From a virus: a DNA stretch of 64,000 nt. Below are positions 18,764 to 60,363 of this stretch, in pieces; position 1 is the stretch's first letter; the number at the start of each line of letters is the position of its first letter. Below the pieces are notes generated by a model. The model searched no databases, was not told the origin of the DNA, and saw nothing but the letters and a program-made list of their open reading frames with translations. The DNA is taken from positions 1 through 64,000 of IMG/VR virus record IMGVR_UViG_3300025087_000053; one strand, given 5' to 3'. The position numbers and the translations under genes are program-made.

Positions 18764-19057
18764 AATCTTTGAGACTTAACCACGACACGAACCCGTTAGT
18801 TAACATGGGGTTAAGCCTTCTCCTTCTGTTAAAAAGAACGAATTTACAAAAAAGGAGTAAATTCCACTTCGTATGCTCTATTTATAGTATGTCGAAGTTT
18901 TATACTACGACGATAAAAAGAACCGCCGCCCTGGCGGGGATAGCCTGCTGTCAAGAAAGCTCTGGTTCTGGCCTTACGGCCAGAACGAAACTTTTTCATG
19001 GGCAGGAATCGAGCAGCCGTATTAACTAAGGAGTTCATGGTTTAAGTCTCGAAGGGG
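18764..19057 (+). mobile_element. non-autonomous TnpB derivative, copy C (promoter plus omegaRNA scaffold)
   Basis: both ends of A/B retained with ~1.1 kb of tnpB deleted; in-frame 46-aa remnant ORF 18889..19029. Confidence 0.88.
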
Positions 19058-19063
19058 AAAATA

Positions 19064-19096
19064 AAGAACCGGCCTAGATCGTGCGCCGGTTCTTTC
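19064..19096. terminator. hairpin, likely terminator
   Basis: AAAGAACCGGC...GCCGGTTCTTT inverted repeat. Confidence 0.55.
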
Positions 19097-19278
19097 TAAG
19101 TCGCCTACTTTTCAAGGCAGTTTGTTTTTTTACTAGATAAAGTTGTTTTTTTGTGAGCCCAGCGAGAGCATCACCACCTTTCCTTTTAGGATTATTTGTT
19201 CTCTCGGCCGTGATTCAAGAGAGACAACCAGAGGCCCCACCACGGGGGATTTGGTTAGTGGCCGAGAGAACAAATCTT

Positions 19279-19866
19279 TTAAGCAGTTGCCTCTGCCGAC
19301 TGCTCGTTTGCCCTCTTTTCCTTGCGAGTCTGCGTCATGTCCTTGGGAAGAAGATCGGAAAACTTCTTAATCTCCTCTGCAGCCGCAGTCTCAAGATTCA
19401 GAAGATCATCAAGGGTGTTAACCTTCTTGAGATTCTTCTTTGTAAGAACCCTCCTCATTTCTCCAAGAACTCCAGAGAAATCCGAATAGAACTTTGAAAA
19501 ACTGCCGTTTGAAAGCGAAAAACAATGCTTGTTGCTACCGATCTTGAAAACCTCACCTCCCACCGTATACTCTCGGAAGTAATCTCCCTTATCCTCGTCG
19601 GGGATGGCAATGCGCACCTCTGCGCCACTAAGGACTGCGGTCTTTCTCACGTAAACCTTCTTCTCCGACTTAAACTCGTCGGGGAGCGTGCGATACCCAG
19701 CGTCCCAATGGCTCAAGGCATCTGTATCCGTCTTGCCATACTTGCGAAAAATCTTGTACCAAACCACAGGCATACCATTCTTGGCCTTGCCTCGCCCAAA
19801 GCCCTTGGGCTTCTCCTCGGTCGTAGTGTTGTCGGTGACGGTCAGGGTGCTGTTATCGCTGTCCAT
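19279..19866 (-). CDS. hypothetical early protein
   Basis: MDSDNS start behind TTGACT-17-TAATAT (19908-19936). Confidence 0.7.
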   Translation of the reverse strand: MDSDNSTLTVTDNTTTEEKPKGFGRGKAKNGMPVVWYKIFRKYGKTDTDALSHWDAGYRTLPDEFKSEKKVYVRKTAVLSGAEVRIAIPDEDKGDYFREYTVGGEVFKIGSNKHCFSLSNGSFSKFYSDFSGVLGEMRRVLTKKNLKKVNTLDDLLNLETAAAEEIKKFSDLLPKDMTQTRKEKRANEQSAEATA

Positions 19867-19938
19867 TTTACTTCTCTCTTTCAAGTTTGTTGTCCAAGAC
19901 AAAAACTATATTATTCGATCTCTCTCTAAAAGTCAAGA

Positions 19939-20205
19939 TTAAATCATCGGAGCGCGGCCGAAATAATCGTCCTTCAAAGCTTCCATGATCTTCTTGGACA
20001 TCTTCACAGTCCATTCATTCCTGAGATCACACTGGTCCTCCATCTCAGACCAACGCTTGATGCAAGCCAGAAAAAGACCAAAGACAGACTGTTGCAGCGT
20101 CCTGTGCTGACGAGTGATTGCATCAACAAATGGCTTTTCATCATAGCAGCAGTTGTTAACAAGGCTTGCAATCTGCTCTGCCGTCTTCTCTGCGTCAAGG
20201 TTCAT
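19939..20205 (-). CDS. hypothetical protein
   Basis: 88 aa; purine-rich leader; HRTLQQS motif. Confidence 0.65.
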   Translation of the reverse strand: MNLDAEKTAEQIASLVNNCCYDEKPFVDAITRQHRTLQQSVFGLFLACIKRWSEMEDQCDLRNEWTVKMSKKIMEALKDDYFGRAPMI

Positions 20206-20239
20206 TTTTTTCTCTCTTGTTCGCCCTGTTTTAGGAATT

Positions 20240-20515
20240 CCCCTTCGAGACTTAAACCATGAACTCCTTAGTTAACAAGTTAACACGGACGCTCGATTCC
20301 TGCCCATGAGAACGTTTCGTGCTGGCCGTAAGACCAGAACCAGAGCTTTCTTGACAGAAGGCTATCCCCGCCAAGGCGGCGGTTCTTTCATAAGTCGTAG
20401 TACAAAACTTCGACACGCTATAATTATAGCACACGAAGTGAAACATGTTGACTTTTTTTGCAAATTCGTTGTTTTATTCAGCAGTTTATTAACTACAGTT
20501 CAAGTCTCAAACGCC
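20240..20515 (-). mobile_element. non-autonomous TnpB derivative, copy D
   Basis: reverse-orientation homologue of copy C with the same deletion junction; AA dinucleotide (minus strand) at both flanks. Confidence 0.88.
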
Positions 20516-20564
20516 TTGGAAATCTCAAGCTCTGGTTTTTCCACTGTATTCTCCAAGGGTTTAA

Positions 20565-21170
20565 TTAAAACCGGCAACCTGCCTTCTTCAACAGCTTCAC
20601 GACCTCAACATGGCCGTTTTCCGAAGCCCATAGGATGGCACGGTTGTCACCGGCCGTTGGATCAACCCTTTTGTCGGAAAGAAGAATCTTCACGACCTCA
20701 ACATGGCCGTTTTCCGAAGCCCATAGGATGGCACGGTTGTCACCGGCCGTTGGATCAACCCTCTTGTCGGAAAGAAGAATCTTCAAGACCTCAACATGGC
20801 CTCTTTCCGAAGCCACTCGGATGGCATAGTTGTCATCGGCCGTTGGATCAACTCCGCAATCCAAAAGAGTTCTCCACGTCGAAGCTTTCTTCAAAGACAT
20901 CCGAGGACCAAGAAGAATCTTGTTTGCCTTCCACTTGCTCCCACTTGGGTCCTTATAAATCTGCAAATCCTCGTCGTTTGGAAACGTCACCTCTCTGATC
21001 CACGGGCCGTAATTAAGGAATTCGCAGATATGCTTTTCGTCGGAGAAATATATTCCTCCGGAAGTACAGGTTCCTTGAGGATTAAAGGGCAAGACATCGA
21101 CATTAAGCCCCGTCTTGTAATGCATTCCATGGTGGCACTCGTCGTCATTAAGAATCTTGAAGAACGGCAT
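20565..21170 (-). CDS. ankyrin-repeat protein (paralogue of 17035..17787)
   Basis: near-identical N-domain and three repeats. Confidence 0.9.
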   Translation of the reverse strand: MPFFKILNDDECHHGMHYKTGLNVDVLPFNPQGTCTSGGIYFSDEKHICEFLNYGPWIREVTFPNDEDLQIYKDPSGSKWKANKILLGPRMSLKKASTWRTLLDCGVDPTADDNYAIRVASERGHVEVLKILLSDKRVDPTAGDNRAILWASENGHVEVVKILLSDKRVDPTAGDNRAILWASENGHVEVVKLLKKAGCRF

Positions 21171-21231
21171 GGGGATGTCCTTTGTTAGAAGATTGAGTTC
21201 TTACCGAGGATATCAAAAACAAAAGAAGATG

Positions 21232-21501
21232 TCAAGCGGGTTCTTTACCGCTTTCTTCTATTTTCTTTTTTGCGTCTTTCGGGCAGCAGTCTGGACAATA
21301 AAGAATCGCCTTTGGTTCCGGTTGCGAAAAAACCTCGACGTACCACTCTTTTACAGATTCTTTAGTCTTTACAAATTCTTTGTTACAAACAGAACAATGG
21401 TCGGTTTTCATCATTAAAGAAGAAGAAGCTTTAATTTCTTTTGCAATCTTCTTAACAAACTGATTAACTTTCTTTCTTCTTATCTTTCTTTCGAAGCTCA
21501 T
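21232..21501 (-). CDS. small zinc-finger protein
   Basis: CSVC...W.V...LYCPDC. Confidence 0.6.
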   Translation of the reverse strand: MSFERKIRRKKVNQFVKKIAKEIKASSSLMMKTDHCSVCNKEFVKTKESVKEWYVEVFSQPEPKAILYCPDCCPKDAKKKIEESGKEPA

Positions 21502-21707
21502 TAGTCACCATCTTTCTTTCCAATAGAAGAAGAATAAAGATCCTTACCCCAACCGCCTCCCTTTAGAACAAAGGTAGTTTTATAATTTGTTTGCTTCTCT
21601 GTTTCTTCAGAAGAACAATCGGGACATTTAATAGACCCTCGCCCTTTCGTCACAATCTCTTCAAATCTCTTCCCGCATTTCTGACAAACAAACTCGAACA
21701 AGGGCAT
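21501..21707 (-). CDS. FmdB-family zinc-ribbon protein
   Basis: MPLFEFVCQKCG...CPDCSS...FVLKGGGW; AGGAG SD. Confidence 0.75.
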   Translation of the reverse strand: MPLFEFVCQKCGKRFEEIVTKGRGSIKCPDCSSEETEKQTNYKTTFVLKGGGWGKDLYSSSIGKKDGD

Positions 21708-21742
21708 TGTACATTCTCCTGCGTGTATACGCATATATATAT

Positions 21743-22018
21743 TTATTTAATTATATCTCTCGCTTTTGGGGTAGAGCACCACATGAGGTCTCCTGGATAT
21801 GTCGAACTATGGATATAACTTACCATATCTTTTGCCCAAAGCTTCATTAAAGAGTCTATTACCATAGCGTTTGAATATCCTGACTCTTCTACAATATATT
21901 CCTGAGAAAGATAAGACCTTGCGGCACAGGTTCTTAATATATTTTTGTCTCTCTTGTCTTCTGCTCTCAACAAGGCTTTTAAAATCTTTTCTTCGTACAC
22001 TGTTAGTTTGTTTTCCAC
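21743..22018 (-). CDS. hypothetical protein, possible winged-helix
   Basis: LSQEYIVEESGYSNAMVIDSLMKL pattern. Confidence 0.45.
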   Translation of the reverse strand: MENKLTVYEEKILKALLRAEDKRDKNILRTCAARSYLSQEYIVEESGYSNAMVIDSLMKLWAKDMVSYIHSSTYPGDLMWCSTPKARDIIK

Positions 22019-22026
22019 TATTTTAA

Positions 22027-22590
22027 TTAGTCTATATAATCTAGTCCTTCACCCCAAAAGTTCGGATTTTTTCTTTCCCATACAACAAAATAACCCGAAA
22101 GAACAGAAATATTATCTCTCTTAAAGACTTTGTATGGATGTCGCGTAGCAGCACTTATAGTTCCATATTTTGGTCTTGGCTTGGATTTTTGAAACTTCTT
22201 TCTCTTAGGAATCTGATTAAGAAAATTCATGCACCCGTCCAAGAACACACTTACGTCATATTCTGCAAGATATTCTTCAAGCATTTTCTCAAGTGGATAC
22301 AAATATCCTACAATTGCATACCACTTGTTTCCTCCTTTATCGTTGGAGCGAAAATTATCAAAGCTCAGCACCGTTGCGCTATATCTTGCTTTCTTCTTTT
22401 CTTCTGAACAGCTTAAAGAAAATCCTCTTTCTGGAATCTCCAAGAAGTCGCAAGGAATCAAAAACTTATTTGTCTCTTCAAAAGAATCCTCTTCTACTTG
22501 CTCTTCTTCCGGAAGGCTTATGGAAGATTCTCCAACGCCCAACTTCTCCATCTTCTGTAAGATATCAAGTGCCGATGTCTTTTGTGTCAT
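22027..22590 (-). CDS. hypothetical protein
   Basis: 187 aa ORF. Confidence 0.65.
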   Translation of the reverse strand: MTQKTSALDILQKMEKLGVGESSISLPEEEQVEEDSFEETNKFLIPCDFLEIPERGFSLSCSEEKKKARYSATVLSFDNFRSNDKGGNKWYAIVGYLYPLEKMLEEYLAEYDVSVFLDGCMNFLNQIPKRKKFQKSKPRPKYGTISAATRHPYKVFKRDNISVLSGYFVVWERKNPNFWGEGLDYID

Positions 22591-24068: not shown

Positions 24069-24135
24069 GGCGATATCCTTTGGTAAAAGCTAAATTCTTG
24101 CCGAGGATAACAAAAACAAAAGAGGATGTCAATAG

Positions 24136-26480: not shown

Positions 26481-27869
26481 CGCATTCGAGATTTGAACCA
26501 TGAACTCCTTAGTTAACATGGGTTTAAATCTTCTCCTCCTGTTAAAAAGAATGAATTTGAAAAAAAGTCAACATATTTCACTTCGTGTGCTATAATTATA
26601 GTGTGCCGAAACATCATTCTACAACTTCCGAAAATAACCTCCCCACAACTATCCTCGGCCAACGCATTCGGCTGGATCTTAATAACGTCCAAACATCTTT
26701 TTTTGAACGATGCGCCGGTGCTTCCCGTTTCGTCTACAACTGGGGATTGGACCGCTGGAAAGCTCAGTACGAGGCTGGTGGAAAACCGTCGTGGGTTAGT
26801 CTTAGCTCTGAACTGAATGCCTGTAAAACTACCGAATTTCCCTGGATGATCAAGCTGCCGTGGGCTGTTCCCTCTACGGCGCTGTCCAACCTCGGCAATG
26901 CTTTCTCCAACTTCTTTCGTCGTGTTAAATCTGGCCAAAAGCCCGGTTATCCCCGTTTCAAGTCGAAGAAACGGAACAAAGCAGCCTTTGCCATCGAGGG
27001 CCGAGCCCTTCGTTTTGACGGCCGAAGAGTTAAAATTCCCAAACTCGGCTGGGTCCGCACCCGACAAGAGATAAGATTCCCCGGCAAAATCTTGTCCGCT
27101 CACTTTACGAAACATGCCGGTCATTGGTACGTCTCGATTCAAGTTCAAGTCTCCGACTCCTGGTCTTATCCTCACCGCTGCGAAACCCAAGAAACGGTTG
27201 GAGTGGACCTCGGACTTCGAGACCTTGCCGTGTTTTCCACTGGAGAACGGGTCGAGGCTCCACGCATTCTGCGTGCTCATGAAACCCGACTGCGACGACT
27301 CAACAAGGAAATGTCTCGTCGCGTCATAGGAGGAAGAAATTGGCAGAAGACTAAAACGAAGCTTAGTCGGCTGCATGAACGGATTTCCAACATCCGCAAA
27401 GACGTAACGCATAAGCTTACCGCTCGGCTGGTCCGAGACTTCCGTCGGATTGGAATCGAGGACTTGAACGTCAAGGGAATGATGGCAAATCACCATCTTA
27501 CCAAGTCGATTGCGGATGCTTCCCTGTCGGAAATTAGGCGTCAGCTCACGTATAAGGCTCCGCTTGCCGGCAGCGAAATCGTTGTTGCAGACCGCTGGTT
27601 CCCCTCTTCCAAGCTGTGTTCCGACTGCAGAACAAGACGAGAAGAGCCGTTGCCTTTGTCTGTCCGAGAATGGGTTTGCGAAGCCTGCGGGGTTGTCCAC
27701 GACCGAGACATCAACGCAGCCATTAATCTTAGAACCGCCGCCCTGGCGGGGATAGCCTGCTGTCAAGAAAGCTCTGGTTCTGGCCTTACGGCCAGAACGA
27801 AACTCTCTCATGGGCAGGAATCGAGCAGCCGTGTTAACTAAGAAGTTCATAGTTTAAGTCTCGAAGGGG
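26481..27869 (+). mobile_element. TnpB-only IS element, copy B, with 37-bp imperfect terminal inverted repeats
   Basis: 26485-26521 versus 27829-27865 match 32/37 inverted; AT at both flanks; removal restores TAAGGGGCTAGAC-ATG between clpP and the amidase. Confidence 0.9.
26603..27841 (+). CDS. tnpB: RNA-guided endonuclease TnpB
   Basis: close paralogue of copy A with intact D-E-D RuvC triad and zinc ribbon. Confidence 0.93.
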   Translation: MPKHHSTTSENNLPTTILGQRIRLDLNNVQTSFFERCAGASRFVYNWGLDRWKAQYEAGGKPSWVSLSSELNACKTTEFPWMIKLPWAVPSTALSNLGNAFSNFFRRVKSGQKPGYPRFKSKKRNKAAFAIEGRALRFDGRRVKIPKLGWVRTRQEIRFPGKILSAHFTKHAGHWYVSIQVQVSDSWSYPHRCETQETVGVDLGLRDLAVFSTGERVEAPRILRAHETRLRRLNKEMSRRVIGGRNWQKTKTKLSRLHERISNIRKDVTHKLTARLVRDFRRIGIEDLNVKGMMANHHLTKSIADASLSEIRRQLTYKAPLAGSEIVVADRWFPSSKLCSDCRTRREEPLPLSVREWVCEACGVVHDRDINAAINLRTAALAGIACCQESSGSGLTARTKLSHGQESSSRVN

Positions 27870-27881
27870 ATGTCTAGCCCC

Positions 27882-28580: not shown

Positions 28581-28606
28581 ACAGACCGAAGGGGTTATTT
28601 TTTATT

Positions 28607-29305: not shown

Positions 29306-29364
29306 TTTTCAATCTCCTTGATAACAATTCTTACGCCACTCGGCGGTTTCATTATTAAATAGTA

Positions 29365-30316: not shown

Positions 30317-30318
30317 AG

Positions 30319-32400
30319 TTATAGCTTTCTAAATGCTTCATTTATCTTCTTGTTCGTAGAAAAACCCCACTTCTCATCTTTGGTAACGACGCCAACATAA
30401 GCTGAGTTTTCAACAAGAGGATAATAGTCTTTCACATTCCAGCACTTAATTTTGTTCTCTTCACCCGTATTATCAACCACCGTAAGAACAGCATAATCTT
30501 TCTTGTTTGCTAAGGTTTGCTTAAACTCTACGCTCTTTAATACAAACCAAACATATTTGCCCACTTCCCATTCGCTCACCGGAACGGCGCCAAGAGACTT
30601 TAAAGCTTTTACGTCTTTAGGTGAAACAATTTGGTCAACAGGATAAACTCCTGTTAACTGAGAGCGATAAATAAGTCTTTCTTTTTCCGCGAAGGAGCCT
30701 TCTGGAGAATACAATTTAATATTTTCTTCAAAGTCTTCTTGGTCTTTAGGACGAATAACCGCCACACATGACCAGAAATGCTTGTCGCCAGTAAACCTTT
30801 CGTCCATAAGACTATCTAATGCGCCGCTTCTTGTCAAGACATCTAGATACTTTTTATTTAGCTTCTTGCCCCAAATGTCTTCTTTAAAAAGCACATCTTC
30901 AATCTTATTGTAGGGACGACAATAGGAGATTTGTTCTACAGCGGTCTTGCCCATCCCCAGCAAAGAGAACAGAGGTTGAATAAGTTCTTTTTTGTTGTCT
31001 GGAGACACATCCCAATCATATAAAGAGGACTTATTTATGTCCACAGAAGCCATAGTGAACCCAATAGATTTAGCATCAGATATCGCTTTTGCTTTTGTTT
31101 TTTCTGGCTCGCTGTTGAGGAAGGCGGCAACCCATTCGCTTTGATAATAAGTAAAAAGCCAAGCACACTGATAAGAAAGGATGGAATATCCGCAACTGTG
31201 GGACAAATTAAATCCATAATTGTTGAATAATTCCAAGGACTTCCATAATTCTTCTAAAGCATTACCTTCAATCCCCTTTTCAAGACCACCCTCGACAAAC
31301 TTCTTATAAATCTTCTCTTTCTTTTCTGCGTTGTTCCCTATGAGACCCTTTTTTGTCAAGAGTTTTCTAAGAGAGTTTCCTTCCATTAGAGAAACGTCTT
31401 TCCCTATTGCAACAGCCAACTTAGCAATTTGCTCTTGATAAATAACAAAGCCATAGGTACTTTTTAAAACAGGCTCCACACAAGGATGAAGGTAGGTAAC
31501 GGTTTCTGGATGCCTTTTCGCTTTTAAATACTTCTTGTCTATGTTCGAACCCAGAGGTCCCGGCCGATATATCGAAGTTACAGCAGACAAATCCTCAATA
31601 GATGTGGGTTTAACTTTCACGCAAAAGGATTGCGCGCCGTCGTTAGAAAATTGGAAAATACCTAAATTTAAATTCTTCTTCTTGTGGAAAACAGTTTCCC
31701 ATACTTTCTGATCGTCGAAGTTGATTACGTCGGGGTGCAAGTTTCTATTATAAAACTCTATAATTTCTTTTATCCCACAAGAGAGTTTTCTTTTGTGAAG
31801 AATATGTTTGATAGTATCTTCTATAATTGTTAAAGTTTGCAATCCTAAAATATCAAATTTAATAAACCCCAAAGGTTCTAGATGCCGTACCGCTTGCCCT
31901 TCAGACCAAGGACTTTGGAAAGAACCCTTGGCGCTAATAAGAGGCATTTTTTCATGTAAGTTATCAGACCAAACAAGTCCCGCCGCATGTTGTCCAATAG
32001 ACTTCACCATGCCTTGTAAATTTTCTATGTGAGATGCTACAGAGGGATATTTTCTTAAAAAGGCTTGGAAAGAAGGACTATATGCCTTAACTTCTTCATA
32101 AGTAGGTTCGTAAACTCCGGCAACTTGCTCATGATCCTGTTTGGCTTTTGGTAAAGCCTCGTCGACCATTTTTGTTGTTACTTCATTAACTTCTTGAAAA
32201 GATACATTATAAAATTTTGATATGTCCTTAACAAGAGACTTCAAGTGAAATGTGCCATAGTTTGAAATAAGAGTTGCGCTCTTTTCTCCCCACTCTTCAA
32301 TAAGAAAAGTCTTAAACTCTGCTGCACGAGAAAAATCGCAGTTGTGAACAATAACAGTCTTATAACTCTCTTTAAAAGAGTGATGTTTAATGATTTCCAT
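30319..32400 (-). CDS. dnaE: DNA polymerase III alpha, C-terminal half preceded by a 20-aa C-intein
   Basis: MEIIK...VIVHN|CDF; HAAG, KFDILGL, GIFQF, SIYRPGP, YQEQ and YGFNLSH motifs; own GAGG SD. Confidence 0.9.
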   Translation of the reverse strand: MEIIKHHSFKESYKTVIVHNCDFSRAAEFKTFLIEEWGEKSATLISNYGTFHLKSLVKDISKFYNVSFQEVNEVTTKMVDEALPKAKQDHEQVAGVYEPTYEEVKAYSPSFQAFLRKYPSVASHIENLQGMVKSIGQHAAGLVWSDNLHEKMPLISAKGSFQSPWSEGQAVRHLEPLGFIKFDILGLQTLTIIEDTIKHILHKRKLSCGIKEIIEFYNRNLHPDVINFDDQKVWETVFHKKKNLNLGIFQFSNDGAQSFCVKVKPTSIEDLSAVTSIYRPGPLGSNIDKKYLKAKRHPETVTYLHPCVEPVLKSTYGFVIYQEQIAKLAVAIGKDVSLMEGNSLRKLLTKKGLIGNNAEKKEKIYKKFVEGGLEKGIEGNALEELWKSLELFNNYGFNLSHSCGYSILSYQCAWLFTYYQSEWVAAFLNSEPEKTKAKAISDAKSIGFTMASVDINKSSLYDWDVSPDNKKELIQPLFSLLGMGKTAVEQISYCRPYNKIEDVLFKEDIWGKKLNKKYLDVLTRSGALDSLMDERFTGDKHFWSCVAVIRPKDQEDFEENIKLYSPEGSFAEKERLIYRSQLTGVYPVDQIVSPKDVKALKSLGAVPVSEWEVGKYVWFVLKSVEFKQTLANKKDYAVLTVVDNTGEENKIKCWNVKDYYPLVENSAYVGVVTKDEKWGFSTNKKINEAFRKL

Positions 32401-34267
32401 GTTTCCTCTTGTTGTCTATCTCAAGTACAAATCTCTTTCTTTCTTCGGTAATAGTATTAAAAACTTCTATTACATCCAATGGAACTATTTGAAAACTTTT
32501 TGTTTCTCCCAATAAAGAAATGTCGGTTAAAGCTATTCTTTCTTTTTTTTGTTTTGACATCTTTTCTATTTCCAGCACCACTACTTCCCCGCCAATAGAT
32601 TTCAAAGAATCACCAATTTTTAATTCTTTTGTCTTAGTAACCCTGTCACTTGAAAGAATAAACTTGTGCGTTTCGCCCGCAATAATAATACCCAAAATAT
32701 CTTCTTCTACTTGTTGTACTACTATTGAAAATACTTTTTCTTTCGGCCGCACATTTCTACTAAAAACAGCAGAAACCACGGAGTTCTCTCCAAACTCGTT
32801 TATAACAACATCTCCTATTAGAACATCTCGAAGTTTTTTATATCCCCCAGAAACTCGTACTTCGTGCCCGCTCCAAAGACAATCTATGTCGGGACTCGAA
32901 CCTTCGGATAAAAATCTTTCAAACAAAAGACCATATTTAATAGGGTCGACATGTGTTATGTTCAACACATACGCAATTAAAGAACCTCCAGCAGAGCCCC
33001 GCCCTGGTCCAGTCAGACAAAAATTCCTGCTTTTGTCTATTATCTTTTTCATTGCCAGAAAATATTTACAATATCCTCGGTCTTTTACAACCCTAAGCTC
33101 ATGTTTCAGTCTGTCTACATATTCTTTCTTTTCATACAGCCCCTTGGCCTTTAGACCAGCCACTGCCCTCCTTGCTAAAGCCCCTTCTTCAGTTTGGCCA
33201 GTGGGGACAACAGAGGAAGGTAGTTTATAGCTTCTGTCCATATCGACATTCTCTATCCTGTTCATAGCAATGTCATATGTGTTATCGAGACTCTTTTCTA
33301 TCGTGTCATCTTCATAAAAAGAATTATGTTTAAGAGAATATTTTTTATAATCTCTCCACATTTCTTCTGCAGATTTTGGATACAACTCATAACCGATTTC
33401 TTCTACGGTTTCTGGTAGCTTTGCCTGCTCGCTGTCTTTAGAGTTTAACCAACCCAACTTCTTGTAAAGAAATCTATCTTTCCACAACTCGGGCCTTGGG
33501 TAGTGTGCGTCAGCAGTAGAAACCAGCTTAAACCCCATCTCAACTGAAAGCTGTATTATTAGTTGGTTTAAATCATGCTGTTCAACAAAGTCATTCCACT
33601 GTAATTCTCCGTACCATCTATCTTCAAAGATATCCAACATAGCTTGCGTTGTCTTGCGCATCTCTAAAAGAATATAGTCTGTTCCCTTTTCGTAATTATC
33701 AAAAAAGTTAGAAGAATAAACTCCGCCCACACAAGCACTTGTTGCAATAATGCCTTTGTTATATGAACGAAGCATATCGTAATCTATTCTGGGGTATCTA
33801 TAGAAGTTTTCTCTCTTGTAGGAGTTGTAGACGAGTTGAAATAGATTTTTAAGCCCGTCTTGATTTTGAGCCAAAAGAAGTATATGGCTTCTTTTATTAA
33901 TTTCTGTCTTCTTTGTCCTTGAAAACCTCTTTAGATCGTCTTCAATAACCGTTGCGTTTATCTCTTCTTCTTTCTTCTTTTTTAATTCTTTGTTCTCTTT
34001 GGCCGTTTCGTATGCCGTTCTCCACTTCTTAAAAGAAGGAATAATATACGCCTCAATTCCATATATTGGTTTTACTATCTTCCCCTCTTTTTTCATTTCT
34101 TCTGCGGCAAATAGTTGGTAGGCCATGGAGTTCATGTTACCATGGTTCGTGATGGCGAGGGCTTCACCCCCCGTCTCGTGGACTCTTTCCATAAATTGTT
34201 TGGGATAACCGAATCCGTCAAACACCGAGAACGTATCGTGGCAATGAAGATTTACAAATTTTACCAT
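32387..34267 (-). CDS. dnaE: DNA polymerase III alpha, N-terminal half (PHP plus palm) followed by a 164-aa N-intein
   Basis: VNLHCH, ITNHG, TADAHY, GPGRGSAGGSL, LLFERFL, PDID|CLWSGH. Confidence 0.9.
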   Translation of the reverse strand: MVKFVNLHCHDTFSVFDGFGYPKQFMERVHETGGEALAITNHGNMNSMAYQLFAAEEMKKEGKIVKPIYGIEAYIIPSFKKWRTAYETAKENKELKKKKEEEINATVIEDDLKRFSRTKKTEINKRSHILLLAQNQDGLKNLFQLVYNSYKRENFYRYPRIDYDMLRSYNKGIIATSACVGGVYSSNFFDNYEKGTDYILLEMRKTTQAMLDIFEDRWYGELQWNDFVEQHDLNQLIIQLSVEMGFKLVSTADAHYPRPELWKDRFLYKKLGWLNSKDSEQAKLPETVEEIGYELYPKSAEEMWRDYKKYSLKHNSFYEDDTIEKSLDNTYDIAMNRIENVDMDRSYKLPSSVVPTGQTEEGALARRAVAGLKAKGLYEKKEYVDRLKHELRVVKDRGYCKYFLAMKKIIDKSRNFCLTGPGRGSAGGSLIAYVLNITHVDPIKYGLLFERFLSEGSSPDIDCLWSGHEVRVSGGYKKLRDVLIGDVVINEFGENSVVSAVFSRNVRPKEKVFSIVVQQVEEDILGIIIAGETHKFILSSDRVTKTKELKIGDSLKSIGGEVVVLEIEKMSKQKKERIALTDISLLGETKSFQIVPLDVIEVFNTITEERKRFVLEIDNKRKHGNH

Positions 34268-34269
34268 GT

Positions 34270-47182: not shown

Positions 47183-47212
47183 TATTGTTCCTCAGTTAAA
47201 AGATGTAGAACA

Positions 47213-47241
47213 ACTCCGGCCGAGATAAACCCAGCCGGAGT
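47213..47241 (-). terminator. hairpin between the SSB and recA genes
   Basis: ACTCCGGC...GCCGGAGT inverted repeat. Confidence 0.5.
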
Positions 47242-47265
47242 ATTGTTCTACATTTTCATCTCAAT

Positions 47266-48054: not shown

Positions 48055-48076
48055 TTTGTTTCTCCTTGTTATGTTA

Positions 48077-49164: not shown

Positions 49165-50341
49165 GTTCTAAAATCCTACTCATCTCTCCAAAATTCTTCC
49201 CTATAGAGAGGTTTATAACATACTTTCCAAAATCTGTAGAAGAGAAAATTTCTTCTATCTCTCTTATTTTATGTTTTTCATTCTTGTCAAAATCTAATAC
49301 AAGACAGTCGTGAATAAGGAAAGCGATATAGCTTCTCATCTTATTCTTTTTCAGACATTCCCAAACTTTTAGTGCCTGCGCAAGAAACAAATCACTCGTT
49401 GTGCTTTGGATAAGATAATTAAAAACAAAATGAAAATCCTCTATTTCTATAGTTCGCCCCAAAGGTGTTTCAATCTTTTTCCCGTCCCAATACTTCTTTA
49501 TTAGTTCTTCTCTGTCAAATATCTTTAAGGAAGCATCTTCTGGGTTATACAGCCAAGAGAAAACTTTCTTTTTTGCTTCTTCTCTGGAAAGTTTACCGCA
49601 AAAGAGGTTTTCTGCATTCCATTGGTGGATATCGTGTTGAGGTTGTTCTTTCCCAAACAAATGTAAAATAGTTCTTATTTCAGCTCCATTTATGTCCAAT
49701 TCGACATAAACATCATTGTTGGGACAAAGAATGTGTCTTTCTTTTTTGGGCAATCTAAGTATCGGAAAAGAACCCGGCCGCTCGCTCAGACGCCCTGTAA
49801 CAGTACCAAAAAGATTATAGTCTATTCTCTGTAGGCTTTTATTTAAAGCGTTCTTTATGTCTTCGTCCGCTTCTGCACAGACGTTAAGTTTTTTAAAGGC
49901 TATGTCCTCTAATAGAAACGACGCCTGTTTAAGCAAATTATAATTCTTTGGCCTTTCGGTCGAATCAATAATCTTTTTTGTTATTTCAGTTCTTTTGGCG
50001 GCAAACTCAAGCAAGAAGTCAAAAGAAAATAAATCAACAAAATTCCTAGAAGTTACTTTTACTTTAGCTGTTTTAATTGCACACTGATATGCGGCCCATG
50101 TTTCATAAAGCTTTTCCCAGTCTCTCCTTTCCTTTTGCGAACATACGTCGACAACCTTTTTATTGGAACAGTACAAAGCGGCGGAGTCAACACAAGGGAA
50201 GGCTCTCGATAGATACCAAGAAAAACTCGGGACTGGAAGATTTCCGGACTCTGAAAGAGATAATACATTAATACTACCATCACAGTAAATAACGTCAGAT
50301 TCACCGTTTTTAGAAGAAAAAAGAACGTCTATGAAATTCAT
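49148..50341 (-). CDS. compact family-A DNA polymerase-like protein
   Basis: TVTGRLS, ELDINGAEIR (motif A), REEAKKKVFSWLY (motif B), NYLIQST, IHDCLV (motif C). Confidence 0.82.
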   Translation of the reverse strand: MNFIDVLFSSKNGESDVIYCDGSINVLSLSESGNLPVPSFSWYLSRAFPCVDSAALYCSNKKVVDVCSQKERRDWEKLYETWAAYQCAIKTAKVKVTSRNFVDLFSFDFLLEFAAKRTEITKKIIDSTERPKNYNLLKQASFLLEDIAFKKLNVCAEADEDIKNALNKSLQRIDYNLFGTVTGRLSERPGSFPILRLPKKERHILCPNNDVYVELDINGAEIRTILHLFGKEQPQHDIHQWNAENLFCGKLSREEAKKKVFSWLYNPEDASLKIFDREELIKKYWDGKKIETPLGRTIEIEDFHFVFNYLIQSTTSDLFLAQALKVWECLKKNKMRSYIAFLIHDCLVLDFDKNEKHKIREIEEIFSSTDFGKYVINLSIGKNFGEMSRILEHGKKV

Positions 50342-50347
50342 GCTGCC

Positions 50348-51355
50348 TTATCTTGTTTCGGCCTCAAGATATCGCATCGCACGGTCAAAGTCAAGTTCTT
50401 TTAAAAGAGCACAAGATTTCTCAATAATCTTCTTTTTCTTGGCCAAAGACAGCCCCTTATCCGAATACTCCAGCTTTAACCCAAGATAAAGATTAAACCA
50501 AAAACCAACGTCTTTGTCAACATCCTTTTTATTAACGTATTTGCGATAAGAAGCAATAATAACTTCTTTTAGCAAATCCAAGTCTTTATATTTCGCGTCT
50601 TCGAAATATTCTTCAAGTACCGAGTTTTGCTCTGTTTTTTCTATAAAAGGCTTTGCCGCATCAGAATAAAGATTAAACATCAATCTCCATGGAGCGTTTT
50701 TATCTACAGCAAACCCAAATCGGACAGCACAGCTCTGATAAAGGGGATAATTGTCGTCCGACATTAAAACAGTTTTTGGGTAATCGTCTGAATGAGACTT
50801 TTTCATTACCTCTATTCCAAGTCCACTGCAAAGAGGATCACAATACTTGGAATTAATAAAGTCTGTAAACGTAAATGGTAGTTTTGTATTTTCTGAGAGT
50901 GCTATTATCTGTCTTGAGAAGTTAAGAAAATCCTTCTTTTTAAAGAACCCATTCTTAAAAGAGTTGTCTACCAAGTTTGCAAAATAATTTTTGTATTCTT
51001 GCTCGGGGTTTTTATAACCAGAGACAACTTTTATATCTTTGAATTCGCTTTTATCCAAGCATCCGGCCATTTTAACAAACTCTTTCTTAAAGGATTCGTA
51101 AGCCGATACAACAAAACTTACTCCTCTTTCTTTCTTCTTCCCAGAGTCTAAATAAACATCAAACTTATCTTTCTTAGGGATTATAGAAACTCCATTAAAA
51201 CTCTTTCCATAAACTTGATGCCGATAAAGGAAGTCGATATAATATCCGTTTAATTCAAGTCTCTCGTCAAAAAGAGAAAGATATTCTATTCTCTTGTTAA
51301 AAAGAATTCTCGTGGACATGGAGTTTTTTCCATCTGCAACCATATTATTTTTCAA
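50348..51355 (-). CDS. hypothetical protein in the tail/baseplate region
   Basis: 335 aa; GFAVDKNAPWRL motif. Confidence 0.6.
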   Translation of the reverse strand: MKNNMVADGKNSMSTRILFNKRIEYLSLFDERLELNGYYIDFLYRHQVYGKSFNGVSIIPKKDKFDVYLDSGKKKERGVSFVVSAYESFKKEFVKMAGCLDKSEFKDIKVVSGYKNPEQEYKNYFANLVDNSFKNGFFKKKDFLNFSRQIIALSENTKLPFTFTDFINSKYCDPLCSGLGIEVMKKSHSDDYPKTVLMSDDNYPLYQSCAVRFGFAVDKNAPWRLMFNLYSDAAKPFIEKTEQNSVLEEYFEDAKYKDLDLLKEVIIASYRKYVNKKDVDKDVGFWFNLYLGLKLEYSDKGLSLAKKKKIIEKSCALLKELDFDRAMRYLEAETR

Positions 51356-53642: not shown

Positions 53643-53644
53643 CT

Positions 53645-53986: not shown

Positions 53987-55554
53987 TATTTAACAACCTC
54001 TTTATACGATTCTTTGATTAATCTTCTTAGAAAGGATTCTTTTATTTCTTCTTTCTTGTCCAAATCCCATTTCCTGACGATTCCTGGTGTTTCTTTATTA
54101 TAGTGGTCGGGGTTATGTTGATAAAGAATCTTCACGACCTCAACATGGCCGTTTGCCGAAGCCCATCGGATGGCAGCGTTGTCATCGGCCGAGGGAACAA
54201 CCCTCTTGTCGGAAAGAAGAATCTTCACGACCTCAACATGGCCGTTTGCCGAAGCCACTCGGATGGCAAGGTTGTTACCGGCCGTTGGATCAACCCTCTT
54301 GTCGGAAAGAAGAATCTTCACGACCTCAACCTGGCCGTATTCCGAAGCCCATTGGAAGGCATAGTTGTCATCGGCCGTTGGATCAACCCTTTTGTCGGAA
54401 AGAAGAATCTTCACGACCTCAACATGGCCTTTTGCCGAAGCCCATCGGATGGCAAGGTTGTTACTTGTTCTTACGTTCGCACCCTTCCGAATTAAATCTT
54501 TTACATATTCGAGGTTGGGAGTTTCTTCTTGTTTTACCGCATCTTTTAGCTTGTTGTTTAGCAAACCTTGCCGTTGAATCTGTTTTTCATATTTTAAAAA
54601 CTCTTCGGGGATACCACCCTCCGACATCTCCGCCATCATTTCGATGGAAGGATTATACCCGGCTCGAACAATCTTCATTAGCTTTCGGAGTTCGTCGACA
54701 TTATACGCTTCCGCTTCATCTCTATTGAAAGCCGCAGCAACAAACTTTAGCCAATCGTCATATGTTACTTCCTTCATGTTCTTCTGCATCAAGGAAACAT
54801 ATTTGTTAAATCGGTCTTGACCTCCGATCTCTTCTATTACTTCTCTCGGGGTTTGAAGAAGATTTCCCGTAAATATGCCGCCAGGATATTCGTTCTCTAC
54901 TGTCGTTACGGTTGTTTCGATACCGTCCCCTTGGTCGACAACAGCAAAGTTAATTCTTGAAAACCTGTTACTTATGACGTCTTCCAAAGGAACTGTCTTG
55001 TTTATGACGTTAAAAAAGACGACCCCATCGTTAATCGTATATTGATAGAAATAGTTCTGTCCTTGGGCTGCAATACACCATGGGGTTCCTCGACCCCAAT
55101 AACAAGAGCCCTCCCTCGACAGCAGACGAATCATGATGTATTCATCGTCCTCATAAAGAGTTTGGAAATGTTCCCCTTCGCCACTTTCGGCTGCTTTATA
55201 GGCGGTTTTCTTCTTCTCTTTCCCCTTCGATCTCTCGCTCCGTTGCACGGTTTCGTAATAGTTGATTGCGTCGAAGACTCTTTCAGCCGTTTCGTATTGA
55301 TTAATGTCTTTCTTTTCCAGCCGAGGACCAATCTGATCGAACTTAAGAAATGCGTCCGCAACAAGCTCTTTGCTCTCGTTGCCTTGAAGAGTTCTTTTTA
55401 AAGCCCATTCCAAATACTTCTGTTTGCCCGTCGGATCTTTCGAGGCAAAGAAGTCGATTAGCTCTGTTTGCTCGGGAAGCTTTTCTTTCAGAGAGGAAAT
55501 TTTATCTTCAAGCAAAAGAACATCTTTAACTTCTTCCAAAATTACATATCTCAT
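53986..55554 (-). CDS. protein with TPWCIA domain and C-terminal ankyrin repeats
   Basis: SCYWGRGTPWCIA; four 93-bp ankyrin units nearly identical at DNA level to those of 17035..17787. Confidence 0.8.
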   Translation of the reverse strand: MRYVILEEVKDVLLLEDKISSLKEKLPEQTELIDFFASKDPTGKQKYLEWALKRTLQGNESKELVADAFLKFDQIGPRLEKKDINQYETAERVFDAINYYETVQRSERSKGKEKKKTAYKAAESGEGEHFQTLYEDDEYIMIRLLSREGSCYWGRGTPWCIAAQGQNYFYQYTINDGVVFFNVINKTVPLEDVISNRFSRINFAVVDQGDGIETTVTTVENEYPGGIFTGNLLQTPREVIEEIGGQDRFNKYVSLMQKNMKEVTYDDWLKFVAAAFNRDEAEAYNVDELRKLMKIVRAGYNPSIEMMAEMSEGGIPEEFLKYEKQIQRQGLLNNKLKDAVKQEETPNLEYVKDLIRKGANVRTSNNLAIRWASAKGHVEVVKILLSDKRVDPTADDNYAFQWASEYGQVEVVKILLSDKRVDPTAGNNLAIRVASANGHVEVVKILLSDKRVVPSADDNAAIRWASANGHVEVVKILYQHNPDHYNKETPGIVRKWDLDKKEEIKESFLRRLIKESYKEVVK

Positions 55555-56381: not shown

Positions 56382-56394
56382 CGATTAGCCCTCG

Positions 56395-58641
56395 TTAGTA
56401 AGCAACCGACCTAGAGTCTATTCTAATTTCTTCATTTATTGTGTCGACAATAATCTTCTTAAATACCTTGCCGTCTAAATTGAGAGAAATATGTACCTCT
56501 TTCCCACTTCCGCCTCTCTTCGCACCATCAAAATTATTTGAAGTAGAACGAAGGCCAGAAATAGATTTGCCAAAAACCCCCAACAAAGCTGCACCCGGAG
56601 CACCTATCATGGCAAACCCGGCCAACGACAAGGCCAAAGCAGACACACCAGAAGCCGTTGAAAGAAGTCCCGCTCCAATATTAAACCAATTCATATTTGA
56701 AAAAGAATCAAAAAACTTTAACATCTTGTCACCGGCCATATCGGCAAAGCCGGTTAAAGAATTAACCATCATGCCGATCCCTTCCGCCGCTTCTCCAATA
56801 CCTTTTGCTGCAACACCAAAAGAAACAAATGTTACAGAAAGAGCCAACAATGTGCCAATAGCCGCTAGTCCAACAGGCCCCATTGCGCCAAGAGTAAACA
56901 ATAAAATTCCTGTACCTACCGTAAACGCTCCCAATGCTCCTACAACTCCCCAAATTTGAGCAGGGTCTAATTCTTTAAACGAAGCTGCAATATTCGAAAT
57001 GCCTTTTGAAGCAATCCACACAGACGCACCAATTGCCAAAATAACCCCCGCCATACTCCACAGACTAGGACCAGCCGCTTTAGCTGCAGCCCCGGTGCTA
57101 GCCATCCCTCCAGCAACCGTACTGCCGCCAGTAGCAGCGCCGCCCCCCCCAAGAACAGAAGCAATACTTTTTAAATTAATAAATAAACTTCCAAAAAAGC
57201 CGACTCCCTTTATGGCAGTTGCAACACCAAAAATGGCCAACAACCCTCCTGGATGTTCAGAAACAAGTGTTTGTATCGTTGTAACTATCTTCTCTAAAGT
57301 GGGATAAATTTTTTCTACTAGGGGAAGAATAGTGTTCCCCAAAGAAACCAAAGTGCTTTTAAGTCTATCCGATAGTGTTCTAGCATCTTGAATCAATTTA
57401 TTCATGTCTGCCTGTTGTTCATTATATTCTTCAAGACCAGCAGAACCGGCATTAAATAGCTTTGCTGTTGTCGCCGTATCTAGTTCCAAAATACCAGCAA
57501 TGGCTTCTTGTTCTTGACGAGTTAATTGCGAAAACTCCAACCCTGTTGCTTCAAATTGCGACATTAGATATGGAAGTTTTTCATCTAAATCTAATGTTAG
57601 CAAATCAACACTATTAACAAGGTTTTGCCCCAACATCGCATTTAATCTACCCGCTGCCGTTGCTGCCCCTTCAAACGTATCAAATTTCTTTGCAGCACTC
57701 ATCAGATCTTCAACAGAAGTTCCCGCATTCCTCGCCTGAATTGCCATGTTTTTAAACACAGACGTCATTCTGTTCCCGTAACTGGCAACCATTGGAGCTG
57801 CGCGAGAGAAAGAAGAAATCATTTCTTTCGGAGGAAGGCCCATGGAAACAGCGGCTTTTACCATGCTCTCTTGCATTTCGAGAGCGCCTTCGGAAGTTTG
57901 ATTTAATGCCTTTGTCGCAAGATTAAGAAATTCTGCACTTTCTTCGGCAGAAATACCCAAATATTCCAACTTCCCCGTGGACATAATAAGTTGTTGCTGA
58001 ATTTGAGCCCCTTCTTTTCTAAAGTCCACCATAGAAGAATAAAGAGCGTTAATAGAAGATTCCGCTTGATCAAAGCCAACACCCCAAGCTTGACCTTTTA
58101 GAACAACGTCATTCATAACAGGCATAAATTTTCTTCCTGTGCCTGTCAGTTTCGCAATAGAAGCGGCAGCATCATCGGACGCCATAACTGCTTCTTGAAA
58201 CCCTCTTACAAATTTATTGCTTATGCCCTTGGAGATTTCGTTGATTCCCGAAATTATAGCTTTTCTTTTTCCTGGCTGAGTAAACAAAGAAAACGTTTTA
58301 ACAATAACTTTATCTAAAAGGGTCATCTCTCGGTTTGTATCCAAGAAGAGATCAAATAATTGTCCATAAGACTCTTTCGATTGCTCTATTAGCTTTATTT
58401 TCTTCTCTAAGAGAGGGATAGATTCCTGCAGGGTTTTTAAATCTTTCTTGTTCTTCTCTATTTCCTGCTCTGTAAGCTTATTAAGCTCCTCTTTCGAGGT
58501 AAGAATTTCAACAAGCGCTTTTCCCCTGTTCCGAGCTAGTTCTAGTAAATCTTTTTCGTGTTTGATAGAGTTTAGATATTCCGAATTTAATTCTTCTTGA
58601 AGTTTAACAGCATTTTGAGATATGGTAGATTTAGTTGCCAT
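56395..58641 (-). CDS. tape measure protein
   Basis: 748 aa Ala/Gly-rich helical protein with a hydrophobic region; FDTFEGAA..AGRLNA; follows the chaperone genes. Confidence 0.75.
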   Translation of the reverse strand: MATKSTISQNAVKLQEELNSEYLNSIKHEKDLLELARNRGKALVEILTSKEELNKLTEQEIEKNKKDLKTLQESIPLLEKKIKLIEQSKESYGQLFDLFLDTNREMTLLDKVIVKTFSLFTQPGKRKAIISGINEISKGISNKFVRGFQEAVMASDDAAASIAKLTGTGRKFMPVMNDVVLKGQAWGVGFDQAESSINALYSSMVDFRKEGAQIQQQLIMSTGKLEYLGISAEESAEFLNLATKALNQTSEGALEMQESMVKAAVSMGLPPKEMISSFSRAAPMVASYGNRMTSVFKNMAIQARNAGTSVEDLMSAAKKFDTFEGAATAAGRLNAMLGQNLVNSVDLLTLDLDEKLPYLMSQFEATGLEFSQLTRQEQEAIAGILELDTATTAKLFNAGSAGLEEYNEQQADMNKLIQDARTLSDRLKSTLVSLGNTILPLVEKIYPTLEKIVTTIQTLVSEHPGGLLAIFGVATAIKGVGFFGSLFINLKSIASVLGGGGAATGGSTVAGGMASTGAAAKAAGPSLWSMAGVILAIGASVWIASKGISNIAASFKELDPAQIWGVVGALGAFTVGTGILLFTLGAMGPVGLAAIGTLLALSVTFVSFGVAAKGIGEAAEGIGMMVNSLTGFADMAGDKMLKFFDSFSNMNWFNIGAGLLSTASGVSALALSLAGFAMIGAPGAALLGVFGKSISGLRSTSNNFDGAKRGGSGKEVHISLNLDGKVFKKIIVDTINEEIRIDSRSVAY

Positions 58642-58644
58642 TTT

Positions 58645-58995
58645 TTATTTCCCAAAAGGCCACTTAATACCTGTTGTCTTCTGAAAAGAATCAACAGCCT
58701 TTGAAAGCCAAGATTTGCTTGCATATGTCTTGGGATTGTCTAGCCCATATTTTGTTATGGAGTCGACATAGCCCTTTTCTCCAGCAATAGCCTTAGAAAA
58801 TAAGTCTACTTGCTCTTTGGTCCCTACAATTTTAACAGGAATGGCAAAATCCGACCCAAATAGTCTTTTAAGAATATTCTGTATTGCCACACCAAGAGAC
58901 CTTGTAAATCTATCCTCGTTTATTTTATCTTTTTCATTTAAATTAATGCGAATTTCTTGTAGTTCTTGGTCTTTTGACATGGACAGTTCTCCCAA
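58645..58995 (-). CDS. conserved hypothetical protein of the tail module
   Basis: YGLDNPKTY...F.K.TGIKWPF; ACTAATTA motif upstream. Confidence 0.65.
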   Translation of the reverse strand: MGELSMSKDQELQEIRINLNEKDKINEDRFTRSLGVAIQNILKRLFGSDFAIPVKIVGTKEQVDLFSKAIAGEKGYVDSITKYGLDNPKTYASKSWLSKAVDSFQKTTGIKWPFGK

Positions 58996-59039
58996 AAAGA
59001 AAAGATTTCTTTCTCAAATAATTAGTGATTTCTTATTGT

Positions 59040-59241
59040 TTATGGATGATTAAAGCTGGGAGGGCCACTATTTTTCTTTGGCTTCTCTTCTTCCAGCTTT
59101 GCAGATAGTTTCTCGATCAAAAATCTTCTTAATCCAACAGACATATTATAAGACGTTAATATCGAAATATTCCCGTAATATGCCAATAAAAACATCGCCT
59201 CCCAAGCCTTTTCCACATATTCATCATTTATTCCAAAAAAA
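59040..59241 (-). CDS. tail assembly chaperone C-terminal extension (frameshift product)
   Basis: frame opens across the T7 run (FFGINDEY...YNMSVGLRRFLI). Confidence 0.55.
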
Positions 59242-60081
59242 GCTGTGGTCAAGCGGAACCTCCGAGTCCGCTTCGAACCCACAAGAACAAGCAAAATGAT
59301 ACTTTCTCTTAATATCAGGAGCCACTTTAGAATAACAAAAAGTTAAATGGGCCGAGTCTACCATCGGAAGCTTTTCTAATGCTGTACGAAGGAATACGGC
59401 AGTCCTGGGGTCATTCTTTGCTATCTTCTCCCCCTTTTCGTTCTCAATGGAAACAACGGCAGTTTCTAGCACAGAAAGATTTGTCAATTCCTTAATCTTT
59501 TTTTGTTCGTCTCGGGTTAAAAGCTGAAATTGTGCTTTCCATTTGGTTTTGGGAAGTTCTATTTCATATGTCTTTGGGCCGGTTTTTACAATTACTTCGT
59601 CCCCTTCTGGCATACCTGGGGCTAGCTCAAAACTGTCCAAATCTACGGAACTATTAACTCTTTGCCCACAAGATGGACAGCCCAAAGAAAACTCATATTT
59701 CGGAGATATGGATTTTGACCGAGAAGCAATAACAATTGCGTTAATATCGGCAGCCAACAGCTCTCTCGGGTTTATGTGTTTATCCACCAAGATATGAGCA
59801 AGAAATTTATCTATTGCAAGGTCTTTTTTCCATAAATCTTTGTTGGAAAGAATATCCTCGTCTTTTGCTGTCATATGATAAATTTCAACGAATTCAGCAT
59901 CTTTCAGAGGGTGCCCCTCTGGATAAAATCTTCCTTTACTTGGGATTTCTATTGTTTCCGTCTCAACAGGAAGATCAAACCATCTTGTTTTTTCTTGTGT
60001 TGGCGGAGGGTTGAAAGCTACATCTTCTTCTGTTGTTTTTTGATGCGCTCCCAAAAGTCGTTCGTCGTTTCTTGTTGCCAT
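59224..60081 (-). CDS. baseplate/tail assembly chaperone (T4 gp26-like)
   Basis: IPSKGRFY, MTAKDEDIL, CPSCG, CSCG; ends FFW on a T7 run. Confidence 0.75.
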   Translation of the reverse strand: MATRNDERLLGAHQKTTEEDVAFNPPPTQEKTRWFDLPVETETIEIPSKGRFYPEGHPLKDAEFVEIYHMTAKDEDILSNKDLWKKDLAIDKFLAHILVDKHINPRELLAADINAIVIASRSKSISPKYEFSLGCPSCGQRVNSSVDLDSFELAPGMPEGDEVIVKTGPKTYEIELPKTKWKAQFQLLTRDEQKKIKELTNLSVLETAVVSIENEKGEKIAKNDPRTAVFLRTALEKLPMVDSAHLTFCYSKVAPDIKRKYHFACSCGFEADSEVPLDHSFFWNK

Positions 60082-60172
60082 GTTTTATTACCTTCTGGCG
60101 AACTTTCGCCAATGCTCATGCTGCGCTGTCTACAGCCCTTCAAACACATAAAATATATCTCACATAAGTCGG

Positions 60173-60363
60173 TTTCGTGTGCTATATTTACAATGTGTCG
60201 AAGATTTATACTACGACTTATGAAAGAACCGCCGCCTTGGCGGGGATAGCCTGCTGTCAAGAAAGCTCTGGTTCTGGCCTTACGGCCAGAATGAAACTCT
60301 CTCATGGGCAGGAATTGAGTAGCCGTGTTAGCTAAGGAGTTCATGGTTTAAGTCTCAAAGGGG
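60173..60363 (+). mobile_element. non-autonomous TnpB derivative, copy E (left end degraded)
   Basis: promoter, the same deletion junction, scaffold and right end GTTTAAGTCTCAAAGGGG all conserved. Confidence 0.85.

Follow-up and report, generated by a model that had tools for sequence, protein, structure and literature searches.

The stretch of DNA considered here (the window) comprises the first 64 kb of the 75.6-kb IMG/VR virus record IMGVR_UViG_3300025087_000053, whose estimated completeness is 38%. Its genes lie nearly throughout on the minus strand and encode, among other products, a tail sheath, a T4-type tail tube, a baseplate protein, ribonucleotide reductase, a DNA polymerase in two open reading frames (ORFs), GroEL, a DnaB helicase, ClpP and an amidase. 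No DNA match to GenBank phages was found for this phage. For the tail sheath, the best GenBank phage match, from a Microcystis phage, reaches only 28.6% identity, and on this evidence the window is a fragment of a novel, large myovirus-like phage. Set among these genes are copies of an element built around tnpB: two full-length copies (A and B), each with a 412-amino-acid (aa) ORF, and three short copies (C, D and E) from which most of the gene is missing (Table 1). All of them end in a closely similar block of about 139 nt, the predicted scaffold of an omegaRNA, the guide RNA of TnpB.

Table 1. Copies of the tnpB element and associated antisense frames and motifs (window coordinates unless a contig is named).
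Feature	Position	Strand	Components and remarks
Full element A	15227..16616 (1390 nt)	+	left end; promoter-like site 15314-15342; tnpB 15349-16587 (412 aa); scaffold 16477-16616; would-be guide from 16617
Full element B	26481..27870 (1390 nt)	+	TGTCAT before it; promoter-like site 26568-26596; tnpB 26603-27841; scaffold 27731-27870; would-be guide from 27871
Short copy C	18764..19058	+	class-1 left end; -10 mutated to TCTATT; ATG + ~11 codons; junction near 18915-18920; scaffold 18920-19058; would-be guide 19059-19074
Short copy D	20239..20521	- (direction of phage genes)	class-2 shortened left end; best promoter match 20451-20423; junction near 20385; scaffold 20385-20239; would-be guide 20238-20223
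Short copy E	60173..60364	+	no left end; extended -10 with flank-derived -35 (60159-60188); junction near 60226; scaffold 60226-60364; would-be guide 60365-60380
Short copy F	L022 5295-5584		class-2 shortened left end; same junction as C, D, E
Short copy G	L022 ~8003/8070-8282		no left end; same junction as C, D, E
tnpB antisense ORF	15097-16596; 26513-27850; G001 50033-51009	- (window)	
Antisense terminator-like motif	18923-18937 (-); 20368-20382 (+); 60229-60243 (-); L022 5449-5463 (-); L022 8147-8161 (-)		

Further copies were found outside the window. An exact-word scan with a 24-mer of the scaffold gave no other match in IMG/VR and a single metagenome match, the 10.8-kb contig L022. The initial 127 nt of L022 and of the window are exact reverse complements of each other; L022 is therefore an adjoining piece of the same phage, and it carries two more short copies (F and G). 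Two additional tnpB copies (H and I, 89% identical in DNA) are cut at the two ends of G001, a 51-kb IMG/VR contig that does not overlap the window. Consequently, at least four tnpB copies (A, B, H and I) are known. A preliminary description of the window, which had proposed five guides for two nucleases and suggested a count of further copies as a check, was right about the two intact nucleases in the window, but the short copies now number five, not three.

In A and B the order from left to right is left end, promoter-like site, tnpB and scaffold. The scaffold overlaps the last 37 tnpB codons, and the elements end 29 nt past the stop codon (the length of 1390 nt assumes a left boundary directly after CAT). 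The ORFs of A and B, 89% identical as proteins, contain the Pfam domains OrfB_IS605, TNB and HTH and match ISDra2 TnpB over residues 22-387 (E 5.5e-72). When aligned to 8H1J, both showed the motifs GVDLG, IGIEDLN, HDRDINAA, CSDC and CEACG, and both keep the RuvC catalytic D-E-D together with the two CxxC pairs of the zinc finger. Judged by these residues, the two proteins are intact ISDra2-type nucleases.

TnpB homologues occur in 428 GenBank phage records, every protein match being below 60% identity. The closest bacterial TnpB (46% identity; L012 876-2667, on the Alicyclobacillaceae contig QXHL01000039.1) lies directly behind an ORF with a MerR-type HTH and a resolvase domain, as in IS607 elements. 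Since the closest solved relative, ISDra2, is of the IS605 type, this TnpB clade occurs with both kinds of transposase. The window also encodes a second RuvC/TNB protein (475 aa; 6071-7498, minus strand), only 23% identical to TnpB A/B over 200 residues; it belongs to a separate system and is unlikely to use the scaffolds described here.

The short copies C, D and E lie where the preliminary description had placed them, and its claim that they derive from a single deletion point held up upon alignment. The sequence ...TGTCGAAG-TTTTATACTACGAC-NNNNAAAG is joined to AACCGCCGCC at one point in these three copies, and the junction common to all five reads ...ACTACGAC(N)(A/T)(A/T)(A/G)AAAG joined to AACCGCCGCC. 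On one side of it stand about 11 tnpB codons, on the other the final 139-140 nt of the element, a block that is retained whole (148 nt in D, through an 8-nt duplication), so the structured 3' region is indeed kept. This block reaches the exact right end in all five short copies and is cut inside in none, though the left ends are lost or replaced in four of the five. Identity over the 28 nt of 5' codons is 85% within the group of short copies vs only 62% between short and full copies, which, together with the identical junction, indicates a single deletion event and one lineage. We propose that this deletion occurred between short A/G-rich microhomologies and removed tnpB codons ~12-377; it would have left the tnpB promoter, a leader of ~33 nt with the first codons, and the complete 139-nt 3' block ending at the right end.

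The five copies occupy five loci with unrelated flanks, between genes; relative to the phage genes, C and E are antisense and the other three co-directional. None contains a protein gene, and all share their right end with the full elements. The left end of the full elements, in turn, is found only in C, D and F. By these features, which are those used to recognize PATEs, C, D, E, F and G are almost certainly internally deleted, protein-less, non-autonomous PATE/MITE-like derivatives of the phage's own ISDra2-type element.

Two 23-nt scaffold motifs had five sites on the element strand of the window, compared with none expected from shuffles, and two of the five coincided with the 3' ends of the 412-aa tnpB ORFs. 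A covariance model built from seven scaffolds found exactly those seven in 161 kb, plus weak matches on left ends; it found no more diverged copies there, and failed to recover the RNAs of relatives whose proteins are 30-46% identical. The model scored the scaffold of A at 167 bits, that of C at 169.8 bits (5 differences from B), that of E at 167.2 bits and that of D at 145.7 bits (17-23 differences).

The deletion is in frame and, as described earlier, leaves a remnant ORF of 46-54 aa that is open in all five copies, starting with ATG in three of them where the full copies have GTG. The cassettes might accordingly be retained for this peptide, which joins the N-terminus of TnpB to the C-terminal tail and could, for instance, regulate TnpB. 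However, an open frame is what all copies would inherit from one event. The variable columns fall on codon positions 1, 2 and 3 in numbers of 7, 10 and 7, so that no third-position (synonymous) excess and no sign of coding selection are seen; moreover, the duplication in D alters the C-terminus, and there is no ribosome-binding site, as the -10 box abuts the start codon. We consider this explanation extremely unlikely and, given the lack of codon-position bias, rejected the micropeptide as the reason for retention.

The scaffolds are about equally similar within and between the two kinds of element (identity 0.910 for short vs full copies, 0.914 for full vs full, 0.896 among short copies), with those of C, E and G differing from B at just 5-8 positions. 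Identity then falls from ~0.90-0.91 to 0.30, the chance level, over the next 20 nt, and the drop comes right after GGGGA (TGGGA in A). The copies thus do differ from this point on, as first reported, each having a different 3' flank. A sharp loss of conservation at the border between scaffold and guide, with the scaffold located at the tnpB 3' end and running to the right end, is the pattern by which an omegaRNA boundary is recognized (PMC10278001). Among the would-be guides, that of C lies within a flank hairpin (AAAGAACCGGC...GCCGGTTCTTT), and that of E falls in the gap separating the baseplate and tail-tube genes. In 137 kb, no second target with two or fewer mismatches was found for any of the seven guides, implying that the phage does not target itself.

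The predicted structure of the scaffold consists of a CCGCC/GGCGG hairpin, a long arm closed by CCUGCU/GGGCAGG and bearing a GUUCUGGCC-UUAC-GGCCAGAAC hairpin, and a guide-proximal domain closed by AUCGAG/CUCGA, 7 nt before the flank. Across the alignment 96% of the cells were paired, against 33-49% for slid controls. The guide-proximal stem (91-96:136-142) was 100% paired in the seven sequences and contained one compensated pair in two of them, a change from C-G to U-A in A and E (pair 92:141); another change from C-G to U-A was found in the hairpin of F. Rfam returned no omegaRNA family and chance hits only, both at the gathering threshold on the whole window and at an E-value threshold on the right end of B. 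TnpB is reported to trim its own mRNA 5' of the scaffold to make its guide, with processed scaffolds of 79-466 nt (PMC10278001), and the 139-nt block of the short copies falls within this range.

A, B, D, E and F each have, at the corresponding position, a promoter-like site (TCAACA-17-TGnTATAWT, with a TG-extended -10) that passed a consensus scan; in A and B, the -10 box ends ~7 nt before the GTG start. The statement that the short copies keep the promoter is thus correct for D, and for E with a -35 supplied by flank sequence, but not for C, in which the -10 is mutated. The extended -10 was kept in four of the five short copies, including G.

On balance, we lean towards the view that the short copies are deletion derivatives whose RNAs, at least in some copies, are used by TnpB in trans. 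Each cassette would be transcribed from its retained extended -10 promoter or, in D, F and G, by read-through. TnpB made from the full copies would bind the scaffold, trim off the 5' leader and be guided by the 16-20 nt of flank that follow GGGGA. The resulting complex could then cut an insertion-free allele, brought by a co-infecting relative or arising after excision, in which a (T)GTCAT-like motif directly precedes the matching flank, and repair from the insertion-bearing copy would keep or spread the cassette. The "multi-locus homing" invoked in the preliminary description is in this respect no new mechanism but a model already in print for PATEs and for co-infection between phages (PMC10055086, PMC13565253).

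Several observations weigh against such a role, some of which would fit a different interpretation, namely that the short copies are inert, decaying transposon relics without RNA function, alike only through recent origin and gene conversion. First, among the short copies the scaffold (0.896; divergence ~10%) is barely better conserved than the leader and promoter (0.84-0.85; divergence ~15%), a difference too small to speak for purifying selection specific to the RNA; gene conversion could equally keep the copies alike. The covariation is suggestive only, as it comes from seven close sequences and 16 of 500 shuffles reach the score. The stems have also suffered uncompensated changes in D, F and G: the scaffold of D has, besides its duplication, three broken pairs, and that of F two broken hairpin pairs, all unrepaired. 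Furthermore, C (mutated -10) and G (-35 lost) fail the promoter scan, E and G lack a left end, and no transposase was found on 126 kb. Finally, the adjacent motif and the exact left boundary are tentative, and our searches of IMG/VR and metagenomes yielded no phage relative that would supply a target.

Relics of this kind, on the other hand, would not be expected to preserve the full 139-nt block to the exact right end in five of five copies while left ends are truncated or replaced in four, or to keep the extended -10 in all but one, or to contain a compensated pair in the guide-proximal stem. We therefore judge complete inertness of the set unlikely, though by no means negligible. Use of the short-copy RNAs by TnpB in trans appears plausible from the sequences, with C, E and G looking usable and D and F looking partly decayed.

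The left ends provided information on how the copies arose. They fall into two classes. Class-1 ends carry the second arm CATGGGTTTAAATCTTCTCC and belong to A, B, I and one short copy, C; class-2 ends have CACGACTGCTGA-AGA-GAAAC in its place and belong to one full copy, H, and to D and F among the short ones. Each class is hence present both with and without the deletion, giving all four combinations and meaning that the copies have recombined. The scaffold characters conflict as well, E having T13 in common with D and F but the 92:141 pair in common with A. Because of this recombination, the deletion may have spread by gene conversion into resident full copies.

According to this proposal, which concerns origin only and is compatible with functional and inert readings alike, ectopic gene conversion or recombination, and not movement as a mini-transposon, would have carried the deletion from locus to locus. 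T4-like phages recombine heavily, and neither a Y1 TnpA (PF01797) nor a serine recombinase (PF00239) was detected on G000 and G001 (126 kb together). Yet the same mosaic would result from recombination after transposition, and in E and G there is no homology at the left end that could have supported conversion there. We regard the proposal as a real possibility that falls somewhat short of probable, spread by this route being as likely as repeated transposition. Of the earlier notion that one deletion derivative was mobilised repeatedly, the part that stands is one derivative at five loci; its repeated mobilisation is conjectural, in view of the missing transposase and the recombination among copies. 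It should be added that G000 and G001 sample only ~38% and 28% of the phage, and a transposase may be supplied in trans by the rest of the phage or by its host.

Some other sequences bear on the relationship of these contigs. Repeats of 80-360 nt (84-95% identity) are dispersed over the window, G001 and L022, for example G001 21030-21368 vs window 55171-55509, or L022 10427-10782 vs window 17041-17384, 20595-20852, 54040-54395 and others; their occurrence on all three contigs supports an origin from one phage or close relatives. An identical copy of the tail-tube protein was found on 14 contigs, the longest being 119.9 kb.

Within the left end of B, positions 26485-26516 are an inverted copy, with a 94% match, of the final ~32 nt of the right end (27838-27869), and the same holds for A, C, H and I. 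In class-1 left ends a direct copy follows the inverted one, so that a hairpin of ~15 bp is possible. An inverted right-end copy of this kind is unusual in a family described as lacking terminal inverted repeats.

In all nine copies the left edge of homology reads (C/G)AT, and there is no target duplication. The motif is TGTCAT in B, G, H and I, ACCAT in A, GACAT in C, CACAT in E, GAGAT in D and CTGAT in F. Because no gene begins at it in H and G, a target or adjacent motif is a likelier reading than a start codon. As a candidate adjacent motif, its (C/G)AT ending resembles that of ISDra2, TTGAT. The left junctions, reading CAT or GAT, lack the GG core of IS607 elements. Insertion-free relatives were sought through two genes beside copies, and neither the tail-tube protein nor a 207-aa ORF has relatives in IMG/VR.

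The deletion also creates a sequence absent from the full copies. In all five short copies, the antisense strand at the junction carries a terminator-like motif, CCGCCARGGCGGCGG then TTCTTT, which A and B do not have. One could thus imagine that the cassettes are not guide genes but cis-regulatory modules, in which one strand provides a promoter and the opposite strand a terminator made by the junction, and their location between genes would agree with this. But the terminator stem comprises just 5 pairs, and the mixed orientation of the copies points to no consistent role, making such a function very unlikely.

A separate observation concerns the antisense strand of tnpB itself. A codon-aligned antisense frame runs without a stop through A, B and I, giving ORFs of 499 and 445 aa. 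The codons TTA, CTA and TCA are completely missing among the ~70 Leu and Ser codons of tnpB, vs 9, 9 and 3 in its relatives L008, L012 and L013; under the four-fold A3 frequency of the gene itself this has a probability of ~3e-6, and under a context-aware null one of ~2e-4. Likewise, A and B differ synonymously at 16 Leu/Ser codons, in no case with a codon ending in A. The antisense ORF is co-directional with the phage genes and starts with an ATG in the right end; in B, it stops at ATGTTAA, overlapping an in-frame start of the amidase ORF. A precedent exists in "TnpB_rev", a reverse-strand ORF with peptide evidence in Anabaena and phage A-1(L) (bioRxiv 10.64898/2026.02.14.705889). However, a DUF932 gene (376 aa, plus strand, L022 4163-5386) is similarly covered by an antisense ORF of 400 aa. 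Long antisense frames are therefore not unique to tnpB, which weakens any special reading of this one.

Element A is bordered on both sides by tRNA-like fragments (window 15050-15226 and 16617-16633): a tRNA-like 5' end, GCGCCCGTAGCTCAGT (minus strand), directly follows its right end, and near 15055-15095 there is a segment resembling a T arm together with the acceptor 3' strand that matches this 5' end. We considered an insertion of A into a tRNA gene, but ARAGORN called no tRNA, either with A present or with A removed at 18 cut points, so the 5' fragment is not just a tRNA gene interrupted by A. Elsewhere in the window, the DNA polymerase (PHROG 405; 30319-34267, minus strand) is split into two ORFs that overlap by 14 nt, each matching a different half of the PHROG 405 profile.

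Among known systems, the short copies are most readily compared with PATE-like elements, such as those of Geobacillus stearothermophilus (PMC10055086) and Haloquadratum (PMC3119063). These too derive from a TnpB insertion sequence (IS) of their own genome and encode no protein; each retains the right end, including the guide-RNA scaffold. Several copies are scattered around the genome, all dependent on TnpB and any transposase being provided in trans. Meers et al. (2023) described such minimal, protein-less PATE-like IS elements as being acted on in trans (PMC10055086). The copies described here differ in that they sit in a large phage, that two of the five lack any left end, and that no TnpA was seen on the available phage contigs; moreover, they keep the tnpB promoter and first codons, which makes them products of an internal tnpB deletion rather than bare ends.

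With ISDra2 of Deinococcus radiodurans (PDB 8H1J, 8EXA), the phage elements share a nuclease with the same catalytic residues and an RNA (omegaRNA or reRNA) that overlaps the tnpB 3' end and ends at the right end. Unlike ISDra2, they have no tnpA and carry the 32-nt inverted right-end copy in the left end; the proteins, although aligned end to end, have clearly diverged, and between the RNAs there is no Rfam or sequence match. The IS607-family TnpB elements (CboIStron, bioRxiv 10.1101/2023.11.20.567912; L012) are similar in the proposed homing role of TnpB and in that the closest bacterial TnpB stands behind a serine recombinase. The phage elements, by contrast, have no intron, no serine recombinase on the contigs and, at the left junction, no GG core of the type described in the same work (bioRxiv 10.1101/2023.11.20.567912).

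A further parallel is offered by the free-standing homing endonucleases of T4-like phages, Seg and Mob (PMC13565253). There, too, an insertion-free relative is cut during co-infection and nearby markers are preferentially inherited, as we propose for the present elements; here, however, recognition would depend on an RNA guide and an adjacent motif, and a single nuclease would act at many loci. Co-infecting phages are named as targets of "transposon non-restorative homing" in a 2026 review (PMC13565253).

Protein-less omegaRNA elements are thus already known from bacteria and archaea, and the phage case is a well-resolved further example. It stands out through its copy number (at least four copies with tnpB and five that are guide-only), through two copies that have lost the left end but look intact in other respects, and through the clear recombination among copies. 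One may go further and suppose that E, G and perhaps C are no longer transposons but fixed "guide genes", each made up of promoter, scaffold and a guide derived from the flank. They would form a dispersed, array-less guide set with which the TnpB copies, in co-infections, eliminate or convert related phages at a number of structural and replication loci. We think this improbable on present evidence. Were it true, fixed guide genes would link, as a natural intermediate, the guide RNA of a transposon with a CRISPR-like multi-guide system.

As it stands, the phage provides an example with nine element copies, a common deletion and proven recombination. Should the cassettes prove active, at least seven loci in a phage genome of ~200 kb would be policed by a single small nuclease, and the system would offer a tractable natural case of RNA-guided homing or exclusion between phages, with guide RNAs uncoupled from the nuclease gene.

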